Positions 41,413-64,000 of a DNA stretch of 64,000 nt are shown piece after piece. The position numbers and the translations under genes are program-made. Numbering within the stretch: the first letter of the stretch is position 1; every line of letters begins with the position of its first letter. This stretch comes from an uncultured virus (IMG/VR IMGVR_UViG_3300032167_007731) (taxonomy: Duplodnaviria > Heunggongvirae > Uroviricota > Caudoviricetes), in IMG/VR virus record IMGVR_UViG_3300032167_007731; one strand, written 5' to 3'. Below the pieces are notes generated by a model. The model did no database searches and was not told the origin of the DNA. It worked only from the letters and a program-made list of their open reading frames with translations.

Positions 41413-42507
41413 TTACTCATCATCACCTGTGTACTTTGTTTGAGTACCATTCGCCAAAAATTGATAATGTGGATTATAACCTGCCTCTGCTGCCTCCTGA
41501 AAACTATCAAATTTTCTATCAACATTAACATTTACATAATTACCATTCTTATCTTTTTGCTGACCAGCATAACAATAATATTTTACACCATTTTGAGTAA
41601 AACCTATAATAAATGACTTCATCTTTACACGATAACCTGAAACACTTACAACATCTATGTCATAACCATTTAAAAATGTTGAATCCTGAAACATCAAAAG
41701 CAAACTTGGACTTTCTATACTATTTATAGTCGTTTGAGCACCCGAAGAAGAAGGCATATAAAAAGCATTTAATTTATTCTTTGTTCTCTGAACATTTCTT
41801 GTATGTATAGCATAGTTCATATCCTCTGTAATGCATTGACTTATAGCCTGTCTTTTTAACCTTCTAAACTCTTCATCTGTAGGTATTGCAATACCATCTA
41901 ATGTACCTAATTGAGTATTTACATCCTCTGGATTTGCAAAACTATCTAATGCCATAATACCACCACCACCGTCTACTGTTTTCCATACACCTGTTAAATC
42001 CTCTGTTACTAAATTTACAGCAAAAACAATATTATCACAAGTCAATAAATAAGGTCTTTTTGGACCCCAAAGTAATCCATAGTCCTCACCCACTACTTTT
42101 TTACCCTCTGGTGACTCTGTATCATCATCTTTTTCTACTTCTTCTAAAATATAATAACCATCAATAGCACATAAAGCTGCTGTTGGAATACAATCCTCTA
42201 TTTTCTTTAAGTTTTCTTCACTACTTGACATATCATAAGATAAGCATAAAACATTAGAAAATGTTTCTAAAACCTTTGAATGATTCAAATGAATATTATT
42301 CAATTCATTATTAGCATAGTCAGTACCTACTGAATCCGCAGAAACAGCAGACCTAAAAGCAGCCTCAACAGCATAATCAACTGCCTGTGCTAATCTTAAT
42401 TCCTCAAACTGTCGCCTATTTGTATTTTCAATATTATTTATAACTATTAGCATTATAGCAATTATAACAACTGCAATTAAATTAAATATAGCACTCCATA
42501 CTTTCAT
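41413..42507 (-). CDS. Minor pilin-like / TadG-like protein
   Basis: N-terminal TM followed by RLAQAVDYAVEAA helix (TadG-like pattern); C-terminal FDSFQEAAEAGYNP; last gene of the pilin cluster. Confidence 0.6.
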   Translation of the reverse strand: MKVWSAIFNLIAVVIIAIMLIVINNIENTNRRQFEELRLAQAVDYAVEAAFRSAVSADSVGTDYANNELNNIHLNHSKVLETFSNVLCLSYDMSSSEENLKKIEDCIPTAALCAIDGYYILEEVEKDDDTESPEGKKVVGEDYGLLWGPKRPYLLTCDNIVFAVNLVTEDLTGVWKTVDGGGGIMALDSFANPEDVNTQLGTLDGIAIPTDEEFRRLKRQAISQCITEDMNYAIHTRNVQRTKNKLNAFYMPSSSGAQTTINSIESPSLLLMFQDSTFLNGYDIDVVSVSGYRVKMKSFIIGFTQNGVKYYCYAGQQKDKNGNYVNVNVDRKFDSFQEAAEAGYNPHYQFLANGTQTKYTGDDE

Positions 42508-42524
42508 AGTCTCACCTCTCTACT

Positions 42525-63500: not shown

Positions 63501-64000
63501 TACACTCTGTCCTAAACCAAAAGCATATCCAGAAGTTTGTGTTGCTGCAGTAGAATTTCCTGCTTCGCTTAAAGCAATACCACCTGTTGTTCCACCGCCT
63601 GAACCACCTTGAACGCTTGCACTAGAAACACCTACATGTTCTGTACCACCACCACCACCTGCAACTATTAAAACATCTGACCTATAAGAATTTAATGAAC
63701 TTAATAATCCTGTTCTTGTTGCTATATGAGTAGCACCACCACCACCTGCTGAACCATCATTACCATTTGGTGTTAATGTTACATTACCACCACCATTATA
63801 ACCATTATGATATGAAGTATAATTACCTAATTCAGTATAGCCACCTGAACCACCAACTGCAACATATAATGTTGTAGGACTATTTAAATTTATAGTACCA
63901 CTAGAATACCCACCATAACCACCATAAGAAGTATTATTACTATTAGGATAACTATGTCCTCCACCTTGAGCACCCCAGACTTCCAACTTATACTCACCCG
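57531..64000 (-). CDS. Giant glycine-rich-domain surface protein/adhesin (5'-truncated by the window, more than 2150 aa)
   Basis: Frame is open to the window end (...GEYKLEVWGAQGG); four Gly-rich modules; HxHxxxC(Y) linkers; non-repetitive C-terminal region. Confidence 0.88.
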   Translation of the reverse strand, partial: GEYKLEVWGAQGGGHSYPNSNNTSYGGYGGYSSGTINLNSPTTLYVAVGGSGGYTELGNYTSYHNGYNGGGNVTLTPNGNDGSAGGGGATHIATRTGLLSSLNSYRSDVLIVAGGGGGTEHVGVSSASVQGGSGGGTTGGIALSEAGNSTAATQTSGYAFGLGQSVNGTHMGSGGGGWYGGYCGTTSNTIGNGGSGYIGGVKNGVTENGKRGNNNIVGLDGLARITPLSHTHTDECYGGGGVGGYNCGLDENSEEIVKEFSYKGSIENITLSAGQYKLEVWGAQGGTSPNNIGGKGAYSSGNFTFNSSTTLQVLVGGQGSAGNGTGNWYAAGGGGGTYIASGNSYSTATPLIVAGGGGGAGYNNSDGEVGGAVVTPDGSTGTGGSGSGNGGSGGAGFHADGSNNSGSLNGSTFAKAFINGGNGALTTTQYGGSGGFGGGGIGGGNPGGGGGGYVGGDFGSGVSGNSSNYNVGGEGGTSYNIGSNEVNKSGSQTFNSPTGTSETGHSGNGYARITRLGHTHTEDCGYSSGGGTATTLTCGIPVGGDGQVRTYGTGGNTYNPTNGYGSTSTTLPAGRYKLEAWGPQGGDTYYNGGKGGYSVGELTLSSPDTLYINIGGQGKVGLNDNAIIEGGYNGGGRGYGSTNHNGASGGGATHIGYKTGLLTAFSSDYTTQLLIVAGGGGGGGNADKSGVGGYGGGTSGGNGIGYSSISYGYGAGGTQISGGTSGTGGTNSSQANNMTFYSGGFGYGGYSDSTSISGGWHGGGGGAGLYGGGAGGAISSGGGGSGYVNPNLLDSGTYETIAGNISFPNTAGTGNETGHSGNGFVKITTLDHQHTDACYTTVQIPDGYVLNCDKTKDHVHSMDAGCFIEFVGEDGLTVISSGNPAQFEVPLGNINVEAISKIVVYSKNCPNTFGKIYLKDDTGTYNENDSVTSNTITPNTENQVMTFILQDNPNFSGEFTSLMFELANVTGRFNISKIEVYGYGEKVAGTGDGSGNVGGTTLNFSYTGKTQTASLSKGSYKLEVWGAQGGNDPHYPTSVFGGRGGYASGILNLNNTTTLYVNVGGQGTGNTSSTWGSTGGGGATDISLYGTANTTNWNTTDHLYSRIIVAGGGGGVHGKNYASTSYVGNAGGGESSPTFTANNYTITGSNQISGGRSTYSQYVVGSFGYATANSNGNSYSTAGWNGASRGSDGWANGGAGGGWYGGTTSWSHSAGGSGWVYTESAYNYWATNSTEGRSGNWLLDSRYYLSDTSLIDGNHSMPSVNGGTETGHSGSGYARITPLNTFTPLEINYRDPFDGSSTIILANIDSIPDKLDGDYNPIWKCKFKEPNAHACVTTNDNGLEIVHCKTHVIFNCSEVHHRGEHYNVSNRICWSACGDDANHANTKTETKDKEGNDVKLAEFLQLDAAFTVYFPNVGDFEGNDALGLSKPQVDRGYGYDDNMDTTDWTREKRVKFPFDVIYHNKKTNKYEIHKGNAWIELDVPTVYFNFYILASNAEMQNVPVEFEVEAINGGTNSGVKPKRNIEYDSNIIDKKYEDALKNFRDNYVSKLKDSISGGYKIPYPNVTGTNSSSGVERAFNDSGYWSFYSTKQSSTGLDGVLRAAIDTINKQIENDFEGNTSSDSYIDPHENQGKTGVNNKLKKVTGNDNKVMLSNRRRSNSLESLHGGYKEFYLDVIGRIGNFALVDTEDYRFSEFFKVPVVSNTDLGALADEDNWLIEGAVLNVNPALQNYYVGDSFDIRGNEASLEAVDSLGTHYLNTYNTQSWMQGLIGADGKRDMSKPNLVSQILTSDLIHNRILKGEELRFGYDAYTSIVTLGSYTGARVQVVPKYFAMKLNDNPSEILDTKGQVVNANDFIPLDVYISKEGTYLPINIYGNAANGNPNINEYTLNGYSMNLDWTTEGDRRNYGIDEQGITNDVKAHLTRLDYGDRAEGSGGSFDSTPPLNTPDEIKLIIPEGKNNYLGTAQYMLMSDRHRTFIGSSVSFGGNTYKSRAGTSEWGDDKDPDNIIPDNLFKMAVQRWHGKLGVPSSAVFVPHAYKATGTPIADRNTTTLTPVNSETTSWVMNDDWAIICTAEIIAVGDVWSIYYSQPWFKTMTVSGQMYNTVTVGGEHYPGHRVYNDKGQSEECPHCLPPIIAIYSSDSSSVDDVEIVQTH
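60160..64000 (-). repeat. Four intragenic Gly-rich module repeats
   Basis: Module starts CCACCTTGAG(C/G)ACCCCA near 60910, 62243, 63142 and 63961 (YKLE[VA]WG[AP]QGG); three end in ETGHSG[NS]G[YF][AV][RK]IT. Confidence 0.85.

Follow-up and report, generated by a model that had tools for sequence, protein, structure and literature searches.

The 64,000-nucleotide sequence IMGVR_UViG_3300032167_007731, filed in IMG/VR as an uncultured virus and referred to here as the window (the whole stretch that was analyzed), carries beyond position 41413 a co-oriented block of 16 genes. A preliminary description made from its letters alone had interpreted this block as a Tad-like filament cassette of unusual composition. 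We recovered all 16 open reading frames (ORFs) on the minus strand with unchanged coordinates (Table 1). They encode a giant Gly-rich surface protein, a peptidoglycan peptidase, a SAF-domain protein, a TadZ-like protein, an ATPase, a large membrane platform, a candidate filament subunit, an S-layer homology (SLH) protein, and a series of small proteins with a single transmembrane (TM) segment. The part of the block from 41413 to about 57400, hereafter the cassette, probably encodes a monoderm machine for type IV filaments that belongs to the Tad (type IVc) lineage, with an architecture that is distinct and family-wide and with the giant protein as a frequent upstream partner.

Organization of the gene block

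The minus strand of the window carries every notable ORF between 38 and 64 kb, as well as all 33 larger ORFs of the first 41 kb. The G+C content ranges from 25 to 39%, and the GC skew stays between -0.24 and -0.48 in all 32 two-kb bins. Our Pfam scan covered 49 minus-strand ORFs, i.e., those of at least 90 amino acids (aa) below position 41400 and the 16 of the block, with ORFs under 90 aa and short plus-strand ORFs nested in genes lying outside it. Recognizable Pfam domains were found in six of the 16 block proteins, two of them below threshold (AAA_31 and T2SSE), and the remaining ten have no Pfam family at E ≤ 0.01. According to a hydropathy scan, one N-terminal TM segment each is present in the ATPase, the SAF protein, the 212-aa protein, the M23 peptidase, the SLH protein, the 233-aa protein and the six proteins encoded downstream, while the 691-aa platform has at least six and the 192-aa and 276-aa proteins have none. 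From the M23 gene to the platform gene, the intergenic spacing is only -23 to +19 bases, and this stretch therefore fits a single operon. Wider gaps precede the genes of the 233-aa protein (181 bases), the SLH protein (71) and the 167-aa protein (126). A promoter scan returned 96 sites versus 111.9 in shuffled sequences, i.e., fewer than by chance, and we claim no promoter.

Table 1. Features of the gene block, with the number of loci (of 30 related loci searched by tblastn with all window proteins) that hold a homologue
Feature	Coordinates	Strand	Characteristics	Loci with homologue
Giant Gly-rich surface protein, >2151 aa, N-terminus beyond window end	57531..63998	-	ALK_LTK_GRD	4
M23 (LytM) peptidoglycan endopeptidase	56203..57402	-	Peptidase_M23; N-terminal TM/signal sequence	14
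212-aa bitopic membrane protein	55587..56225	-	TM at 20-38	2
CpaB/RcpC-like SAF-domain protein	54621..55586	-	N-terminal TM + SAF domain	29
192-aa cytoplasmic protein (p192)	54024..54602	-	no TM; position conserved	5
276-aa TadZ/CpaE-like protein, ParA/MinD fold	53174..54004	-	degenerate P-loop HCGGNGNT	24
706-aa TadA/CpaF-like secretion ATPase	51073..53193	-	TM at residues 4-22; acidic C-terminal extension	30
691-aa polytopic inner-membrane platform	48998..51073	-	two putative TadB/TadC-like units	29
233-aa candidate major filament subunit	48115..48816	-	N-terminal hydrophobic helix, then beta-rich domain	24
Terminator-like hairpin just after the pilin-like gene	48055..48086	-	13-bp stem + T tail	
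913-aa SLH protein, cell-wall-anchored, inside the cassette	45302..48043	-	3 SLH repeats	3
Four small proteins (167, 196, 142, 202 aa)	43018..45175	-	one N-terminal TM each	0-1 each
p158, conserved 158-aa protein	42525..43001	-	N-terminal TM	24
p364, conserved 364-aa protein, last cassette gene	41413..42507	-	N-terminal TM	27

An ATPase nearest to CpaF with a membrane anchor

A profile of 15 sequences of the ATPase family matched CpaF in the PDB (E = 1.8e-15, 59 bits), ahead of FlaI (7e-5, 24 bits), the archaeal GspE (9.5e-5) and VirB11 (7e-4). The best NCBIfam model was that of TadA (TIGR03819) in the three family ATPases scanned, with E-values of 1e-9 (38 bits) for the window, 1.6e-13 for locus L009 and 8.1e-7 for the megaplasmid pBsph, and VirB11 models scored below TadA/CpaF in every comparison made. 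The canonical CpaF proteins of the same host genomes reach about 300 bits on the TadA model and about 230-235 bits on VirB11. Because the TadA model wins each time, yet with scores far under those of canonical CpaF, the family ATPase is, as judged from profile comparisons, a far outlier of the TadA/VirB11/FlaI group that lies nearest to TadA, in line with the CpaF assignment of the preliminary description. The Walker A motif (GRQGSGKT in the window, GxQGSGKT in the family), a Walker B motif with Glu, and the His box are invariant in the 15 ATPases.

The N-terminal TM helix noticed earlier in the window ATPase turned out to be a property of the family: it is present in all 17 family ATPases (best 19-residue hydropathy 2.2-3.3), whereas none of nine canonical ATPase paralogues has one (at most 1.2). 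These 26 sequences, the nine others being T2SSE-family ATPases from three host genomes, were placed in a quick maximum-likelihood tree, in which the 17 family members group in a single clade (SH-aLRT 100, stem 1.55), which attaches to the CpaF-type rows at a distance from PilB and PilT (SH-aLRT 97). Within it, a first subclade holds the window, the chromosomal loci, the Pseudoflavonifractor capillosus locus, a 185-kb IMG/VR contig and a Ruminiclostridium metagenome-assembled genome (MAG), and a second one corresponds to the megaplasmid type. Two ORFs of the megaplasmid pPPM1a considered as VirB11 rows were discarded, one being an ABC ATPase and the other having no family match.

An undivided platform

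The 691-aa protein was compared with five TadB/TadC-type proteins from canonical Tad loci of the host genomes. Its residues 60-310 align to TadB/C over 232 columns (51-293 of 301) with an hhalign value of 90.5% (E = 1.4e-6), and its residues 480-691 over 168 columns with 50% (E = 1.6e-4), versus 46.7% for the undivided protein. Since each half aligns separately to TadB/TadC, the platform reads as two diverged TadB/C-like units in one polypeptide, and thus behaves as the fused TadB/TadC that had been proposed from the letters alone. The whole platform gave only 0.8% against a two-sequence PilC alignment, and its profile has no match among PDB sequences. With this profile we found 1207 representatives (at the 50%-identity level) at E ≤ 0.001, 678 of them at E ≤ 1e-30. 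The best 150 of the 1207 are nearly all full-length, of about 640-700 aa, and the fused form is therefore the normal state of the family. An AlphaFold2 model from a 14-row alignment is all-helical (predicted local distance difference test, pLDDT, of 81; predicted template modeling score 0.74), and Foldseek found no match for it at E ≤ 0.001 in BFVD.

TadZ-like, SAF and p192 proteins

The alignment of the 276-aa protein family matches that of the TadZ proteins of two canonical Tad loci (hhalign 95.7%, E = 8.7e-9, 172 columns). The match is confined to the ATPase domain of canonical TadZ, positions 147-335 of 389. Single-sequence scans of the 276-aa protein gave a weak, sub-threshold match to AAA_31 (E = 0.003) and weak matches to MinD. 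The P-loop reads SPIGGSGKTT in canonical TadZ, SPxRRQGGTT in the family and SPHCGGNGNT in the window, and its lysine is missing from all 12 aligned family members, so that the loss first noticed in the window extends to the family. According to the parts of PMC6668835 available to us, TadZ is known for an atypical Walker A motif with low ATPase activity. The loss of the lysine goes beyond this known atypical state, and the protein is probably a non-hydrolyzing scaffold.

The SAF protein scores 24.8 bits on the Pfam SAF model, above the cut-off of 21, and its family profile matched the SAF domain of FlgA in the PDB (E = 0.0012).

Between these two genes lies p192, which matches no family and resembles neither the N-domain of TadZ nor the TadZ-like protein. 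The idea that it could be a split-off TadZ N-domain was rejected, as profile comparison revealed no such similarity. Its family (54024-54602, alignment A11) displays a GxTDKR motif near the N-terminus and a YDHVIxD motif, which resemble remnants of a P-loop and a Walker B motif; p192 may be a second, more degenerate ParA-like protein, the profile comparisons being non-significant.

A candidate major subunit and its small neighbors

In the 233-aa protein and its 13 homologues, both the N-terminus (strongly) and the C-terminal beta region are conserved. The N-terminus reads MEGELGSG-ARIAIALIVIGVII in the family consensus (ARIAIA after the Gly) and MEKEISSG-TMLGIVLIALAAVIG in the window (TMLGIV after the Gly), with a conserved G at the helix boundary. 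The relatives measure 182-206 aa, the family as a whole about 180-233 aa, and the window protein contains an insertion of about 30 residues. AlphaFold2 predicts a helix at 7-56 (50 residues) followed by strands, an arrangement reminiscent of pilins, with a pLDDT of only 52. In type IV pilins, a beta-sheet packs against a long N-terminal helix, and a class III signal peptide is removed by cleavage. Short Flp-type pilins carry a G/XXXXEY processing motif. The 233-aa protein is not Flp-like, as the preliminary description had remarked when calling it a pilin; the pilin fold itself was not obtained.

In one gut metatranscriptome run, a 710-nt contig of depth 30.6 covers 48123-48832, i.e., the pilin-like gene alone, and the contigs over the platform, ATPase and giant genes have depths of 2-6, values that come from contigs of a single run, cannot rank the genes and may include DNA carry-over. 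Parts of the locus that lack cover in this run were not read as silent. The high-depth contig is a hint that the 233-aa protein is the bulk subunit, and its candidacy as a pilin rests on topology, gene position and this contig. The hairpin after the gene is a consensus match only, five such sites being found versus 3.2 expected by chance. A second terminator-like hairpin, with a 15-bp palindromic stem, lies at 45251-45286, between the SLH gene and the 167-aa gene.

Two tandem pilin-like copies of 188 and 193 aa, identical over their first 48 residues, were observed in locus L019 (14018-15222), and locus L001 has a second ORF with the pilin-like N-terminal motif. In all five loci that we inspected, about seven N-terminal-TM proteins are encoded after the platform. 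The sequences of the four small window proteins are not conserved, yet three or four N-terminal-TM ORFs of similar size occupy the same position in these five loci, which makes them candidate minor subunits. The conserved p364 family (41413-41560, alignment A8) ends with a F-S-x-x-EAAxxGY motif, which takes the form YH...C...GYRPCxxC in the homologue of locus L026, an ending that we take to resemble small Cys/His metal-binding C-terminal domains; the p364 profile has no match in the PDB.

A widespread family of Bacillota

Among 7999 candidates scored, 3780 relatives of the ATPase were found at E ≤ 0.001. The best 120 of them are 77-100% identical to the window ATPase and all stem from metagenome assemblies. 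A scan of species-representative genomes yielded 29 loci with ATPase relatives, with identities of 51-59% in Paenibacillus, Cohnella, Vallitalea and the Ruminiclostridium MAG, 47% in P. capillosus ATCC 29799, and 33-40% in further Paenibacillus, Metabacillus and Clostridium genomes. The related loci are in genomes of Paenibacillus, Cohnella, Vallitalea, Pseudoflavonifractor and Ruminiclostridium, on megaplasmids of Bacillota and on the 185-kb IMG/VR contig. The annotated megaplasmids of Lysinibacillus irui, Paenibacillus polymyxa (pPPM1a) and Lysinibacillus sphaericus (pBsph) carry a distant version of the cassette in identical order (platform identity 22-25%, ATPase identity 32-38%), in which the public annotation calls nearly all genes hypothetical, or else "SAF domain-containing" or "CpaF/TadA".

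The order SAF, TadZ-like, ATPase, platform, pilin-like and small TM proteins is constant. As it recurs in 24-30 of 30 independent loci, the gene block is more than a chance association. The 33 window ORFs outside the block had no homologue in these loci, apart from one weak SLH match. The window locus is therefore one member of a large and so far undescribed family, common in Bacillota and present in their chromosomes, megaplasmids and giant mobile elements, as had been suspected when related loci in other Bacillota were named as a caveat to novelty.

Comparison with known type IV filaments

The cassette is most reminiscent of the Tad/Flp (type IVc) systems of monoderms. SAF, ParA-like protein, ATPase, platform, subunit and small TM proteins follow each other in the same order, the ATPase is nearest to CpaF, the platform halves align to TadB/C, and the ParA-like protein aligns to TadZ; of the Tad components, both the TadZ/CpaE ParA-like protein (by the hhalign match above) and the CpaB/RcpC SAF protein (above its Pfam cut-off) are thus present. 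It differs from them by a single platform gene of 650-700 aa in place of separate TadB and TadC, by an ATPase whose N-terminus bears a TM helix and is longer by about 200 residues, by a TadZ-like protein that matches only over the ATPase domain and lacks the P-loop lysine, by subunits of 180-233 aa without Flp motif, by the lack of a TadV/A24 gene, and by the M23, SLH and giant proteins attached to it. Separate TadB and TadC genes, a short Flp-type pilin and a dedicated A24 peptidase are the Tad features that were not found.

Several observations weigh against placing the cassette in the Tad lineage or against calling its product a filament. All its family-level matches to Tad components lie below the curated cut-offs: the window ATPase reaches 20.9 bits on T2SSE (cut-off 24.9) and 38 on TIGR03819 (cut-off 373), and the SAF protein 18.6 bits on the CpaB model TIGR03177 (E = 8.8e-4, cut-off 71). 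VirB11 and archaeal rows were left out of the ATPase tree, which has several long branches. The N- and C-terminal halves of the platform have no similarity to each other detectable with hhalign, no T2SSF match was found by Pfam in the platform of the window or of the related loci scanned, and Foldseek found nothing for its model in the PDB at E ≤ 0.001. A VIA search of 48,161 chains speaks for the platform assignment, the top match being a chain of the type IVa pilus machine model 3jc8 (Z 6.8, root-mean-square deviation, rmsd, 7.0, 254 residues aligned), with the PilC N-domain 2whn also listed (Z 5.2, rmsd 3.0, 101 of 103 residues, on model residues 536-643), but these Z values lie in the range that the tool calls common for helical proteins. 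For the pilin-like protein, VIA matched the low-confidence model to single helices only, with no pilin fold, and the profile found nothing in the PDB below E = 0.5; its N-terminus has neither the Flp motif nor a Glu at +5, and its leader is acidic, not basic. The RNA evidence is that of the single run described above. Finally, no A24 prepilin peptidase (PF01478) was detected at E ≤ 0.01 among the 49 window ORFs, as already noted in the preliminary description, nor among 99 ORFs of four related loci, nor in the entire 185-kb contig, pBsph and pPPM1a.

PF01478 is present elsewhere in two host genomes, in Vallitalea beside a canonical Tad locus, and prepilin peptidases can be shared between systems, as stated in the parts of PMC6668835 that were accessible. 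The subunits may be processed by an enzyme of the host, or may not be processed. Along this line, the cassette could represent an independent type IV filament lineage without prepilin peptidase, with a membrane-tethered CpaF-like motor and an unsplit platform, a scenario that we consider unlikely. The acidic subunits of 180-230 aa, devoid of Glu5, would then be polymerized uncleaved or be cut by an unrelated enzyme, the unsplit platform could be a relic of the pre-fission state that gave rise to TadB and TadC, and giant Bacillota elements (about 185-400 kb) as well as megaplasmids would carry the machine in order to cause aggregation of their hosts, which would favor the spread of these replicons.

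In form, the platform also recalls that of most archaeal type IV pili, in being one long protein with two TadB/C-like units, and the cassette ATPase has weak matches to FlaI and to the archaeal GspE. Available sections of PMC6668835 state that most archaeal platforms have two T2SSF domains and that TadB and TadC arose by later fission. Yet, the ATPase is far closer to CpaF than to FlaI (59 versus 24 bits), the hosts are Bacillota, and the tree contains no archaeal rows, so that the unsplit platform may be a pre-fission relic as well as a secondary re-fusion. The VirB11/TrbB ATPases of type IV secretion systems belong to the same ATPase superclade, but the scans of the window and of related loci revealed no VirB4, VirB6, VirD4 or relaxase genes in the cassette. 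The annotated cassettes of pBsph and pPPM1a combine, in matching order and sizes, SAF, two hypothetical proteins, an ATPase of about 620 aa with a TM helix, a platform of about 680 aa and four small proteins, followed by a SLH or stalk protein and a DUF5704 protein. They make up the other subclade and differ from the window by their ATPase (33-36% identity), their platform (22-25%) and their shorter subunits of about 140-155 aa. The pXO16-type transfer locus (PMC9673590, seen in excerpts) was dismissed as a relative, no Bacillus record being found among the 24 plasmid matches of the platform.

The preferred reading of a Tad-lineage filament thus retains the core homology and the CpaF-like motor of the cassette first proposed, with the 233-aa protein as a candidate pilin and the mating role falling away. 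We found no description of a Tad-like system with fused platform, anchored ATPase and long non-Flp subunits in the full-text literature, subscription journals and supplementary tables aside, nor any description of this architecture there for jumbo phages with SLH proteins or for Butyrivibrio megaplasmids. The genome papers of two carriers do not discuss the cassette in the portions available (PMC2914790, PMC4363355), and such loci may figure among the unclassified "generic" systems in the tables of PMC6668835. Collectively, the comparisons of sequence and gene order indicate that the cassette is a real, widespread and undescribed architecture within the type IV filament superfamily. Few studies have dealt with the type IV filaments of monoderms, and census tools rely on ATPase, platform and pilin profiles. 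Since the platform escapes its Pfam profile entirely and the ATPase scores under the cut-off of its own, we infer that a family of about 1200 representatives (50%-identity level) has probably been missed, or filed as hypothetical proteins next to a "CpaF". The family offers a natural experiment on whether the motor must be soluble, TadB and TadC separate, and TadZ able to hydrolyze nucleotide. Its carriers in cultivable and non-pathogenic genera (Paenibacillus, Cohnella, Vallitalea, Lysinibacillus) make direct testing feasible.

Wall-binding partners and putative mechanism

The giant protein contains four stretches matching ALK_LTK_GRD (E = 9.7e-112), 18% Gly, and a match to phrog_1589 (2.5e-77). 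Homologues lie in the flanks of four of the 30 loci, and directly upstream of the SAF gene in L023 and L006, where the two complete ones (L023:550-7020 and L006:877-6984) start with Sec signal peptides. A C-terminal tail of the form DDhEhxxTH is common to the giants of the window (57531-57590; DDVEIVQTH), L023 (DDLEIHHTH) and L006 (DDLDVRGTH), and may be a sorting or recognition signal. The M23 peptidase is well recognized (E = 4.2e-20); its homologues, found in 14 of the 30 loci, lie at the far end of the cassette in Paenibacillaceae. Its best NCBIfam name is SpoIIQ, below the cut-off, and a SpoIIIA/SpoIIQ channel was discarded, as no SpoIIIA model was among the matches of the ATPase. The 212-aa TM protein has no match in the Pfam, NCBIfam and phage-family scans.

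The 913-aa protein carries three SLH repeats (E = 6e-27), and SLH or other wall-binding proteins flank the cassettes of pBsph, the L. irui plasmid, pPPM1a (stalk domain), L009 and L019. SLH proteins recur in the window, pBsph, the L. irui plasmid and Vallitalea, and copper-amine-oxidase-type stalk domains in pPPM1a, L019 and L006. Because wall-binding and giant Gly-rich partners recur near the cassettes, their co-occurrence suggests that the fibre may act in concert with large adhesins anchored in the wall. Of the S-layer anchoring proposed earlier, the association with wall-binding proteins is thus retained, the anchoring itself not being borne out. Some 25 kb from the cassette, a 770-aa protein (14172-16484, minus strand) combines the "pilus formation protein N-terminal region" PF13629 (30.4 bits, cut-off 23) with three SLH repeats at its C-terminus, and could be one more component that spans the wall.

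We propose that the machine would work as follows. A hexameric CpaF-like ATPase, tethered to the membrane by its own N-terminal helix, would drive the single-polypeptide platform with its two TadB/TadC-like units, with the lysine-less TadZ-like protein acting as a scaffold or positioning factor and not as a hydrolase. The bitopic SAF/CpaB-like protein may form an extracytoplasmic collar, and the M23 peptidase would open the peptidoglycan locally. The 233-aa protein, as the putative major subunit, would be pulled from the membrane and polymerized via its N-terminal helix, the six other N-terminal-TM proteins might prime or cap the fibre, and the wall-anchored SLH and giant Gly-rich proteins could be adhesive or wall-spanning accessories. 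The output would most likely be a surface fibre for host-cell adhesion or aggregation.

The same partners could also speak for a pseudopilus-like device that moves or displays the giant and the SLH or wall-bound proteins through the wall and S-layer, without a long fibre. In the window, L023 and L006, giant proteins with a common tail, with Sec signals in the two complete ones, are encoded immediately upstream, the plasmid cassettes have large SLH, DUF5704 or stalk-domain proteins beside them, the M23 peptidase is part of the block, and type II secretion derives from type IV filaments (PMC6668835, in the accessible part). We nevertheless find such a device improbable: giant homologues occur in only four of the 30 loci, the ATPase and platform are nearest to Tad and not to GspE/GspF, monoderms have no outer membrane, and the high-depth RNA contig on the pilin-like gene better fits a bulk subunit. 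A Tad-type pilus for DNA uptake seems exceedingly unlikely. Excerpts of PMC4322843 report that Tad/Flp pili are needed for natural transformation in an actinobacterium, but no ComEA, ComEC or DprA-type match was found in the window scans or in the scanned flanks of the related loci, and nothing specific points to DNA uptake.

Chromosomal copies, megaplasmids and the question of DNA transfer

In Paenibacillaceae, the cassettes are flanked by ordinary genes in the five loci examined, such as purA, nadD and rsfS (L017), MFS, MarR and spore permease genes (L004), or an ABC transporter at one end with an IS66 transposase and a wall-binding protein at the other (L019), and no transfer or phage genes were seen in the flanks of these five loci. 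VirB4-like genes (AAA_10) were detected at E ≤ 0.001 in all three megaplasmids searched, only one of them above the family cut-off, and they lie tens of kilobases from the cassette (in pBsph, at 52.7 kb versus 163-172 kb). Since chromosomal copies sit among ordinary genes and the megaplasmid VirB4-like genes are far away, the cassette is a self-standing module borne by chromosomes and mobile elements.

These contexts bear on the mating-pair formation that had been suggested earlier as one use of the filament. The cassette could be a mating-pair or contact apparatus of giant elements, or the part of a DNA-transfer system that works with FtsK/SpoIIIE- or VirB4-like ATPases. The VirB4-like genes of the megaplasmids would agree with such a role, as would the two FtsK/SpoIIIE-like genes, the many recombinases and the lack of phage structural matches on the 185-kb contig (see below), the apparent size of the window element of about 400 kb, and the best NCBIfam name of the ATPase, "TadA family conjugal transfer-associated ATPase". 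However, the closest isolate relatives (56-59% ATPase identity) are chromosomal operons with housekeeping flanks and no transfer genes within 7-10 kb in five of five loci, the pBsph VirB4-like gene is remote, and no VirB4/AAA_10, coupling-protein, relaxase or FtsK family was found among the 49 window ORFs. All 24 plasmid records were typed as non-mobilizable by MOB-suite, and pBsph showed no transfer in an assay according to the part of PMC4363355 available; for the pBsph-like p1593, conjugation is reported in a passage of PMC13239906. We therefore no longer retain mating-pair formation, and regard this role as quite unlikely.

The mobile element

Several contigs that bear close relatives of the ATPase measure 399-405 kb, and one 652 kb. 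DNA of the window is present in 20 of 24 listed public runs from 15 studies, mostly of animal faeces and sheep or bovine gut, with some skin metagenomes. In our view, the window is part of a giant element, as first suspected, either mobile or extrachromosomal and phage or plasmid-like, whose host is one of the Bacillota. A size of about 400 kb is plausible for it from the contig sizes. What such an element, common in ruminant and other animal gut metagenomes, would gain from a host surface fibre is a question raised by its cassette.

A large sequence for comparison is the 185-kb IMG/VR contig (L071-L080, behind L001), which is filed as viral and whose ATPase is 45% identical to that of the window. 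The scan covered 116 of its 124 ORFs of at least 170 aa, all but the eight of the cassette. The contig encodes a replisome (a Pol III alpha-like polymerase, clamp loader, DnaB, primases and ligase), two FtsK/SpoIIIE-like proteins, at least six serine recombinases, and proteins of 2120 and 1643 aa. No capsid, portal or tail family was found among the 116 ORFs, and the sole terminase family was a weak secondary match (8.9e-7) of a protein whose best match is FtsK/SpoIIIE. A near-identical arrangement of its cassette region is found in the cultured P. capillosus ATCC 29799 genome.

Could the block instead belong to the programme of a jumbo phage of about 400 kb, in which it would serve surface modification, virion release or entry, the giant, M23 and SLH proteins being virion or lysis parts? 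Its neighbors include a phage-like kinase-phosphatase-RNA ligase (phrog_8238), NrdD, NrdG, a methylase and an HNH-ParB protein, the Gly-rich domain matches phage families without assigned function, IMG/VR includes one relative, and in the ESM Atlas cluster nearest to the pilin-like protein, Viruses make up 52% of the 33 members with known phylum. Against this, no capsid, portal, terminase or tail family was found among the 49 window ORFs, and the 116 ORFs scanned on the 185-kb contig are equally devoid of phage structural matches. The platform is unmatched in 50,697 phage records and in BFVD, the ATPase occurs on only two of 2.9 million IMG/VR contigs, and the cassette is a plain chromosomal operon in Paenibacillaceae. 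A phage programme thus appears highly improbable, and a filament machine of the Tad lineage carried by the element remains the reading that we favor.

Elsewhere in the window, neither tRNA nor ribosomal genes were found over its 64 kb. Further genes encode a DNA methylase, a ParB-HNH protein, a macro domain protein, and three more large surface proteins, two of them with SLH domains. A polynucleotide kinase-phosphoesterase-T4-type RNA ligase fusion (9324-11477, minus strand; phrog_8238, 2e-192) shares 36-39% identity with proteins from phages of Alicyclobacillus and from Twort-like Staphylococcus phages and looks like a phage-type RNA-repair module. The same strand encodes NrdG (8551-9048), a class A penicillin-binding protein (24135-27173), a full five-domain MutS (31414-34092), NrdD (37377-39671), and a protein in which a DFP (CoaBC-like) domain is fused to a class II aldolase domain (28007-29680).

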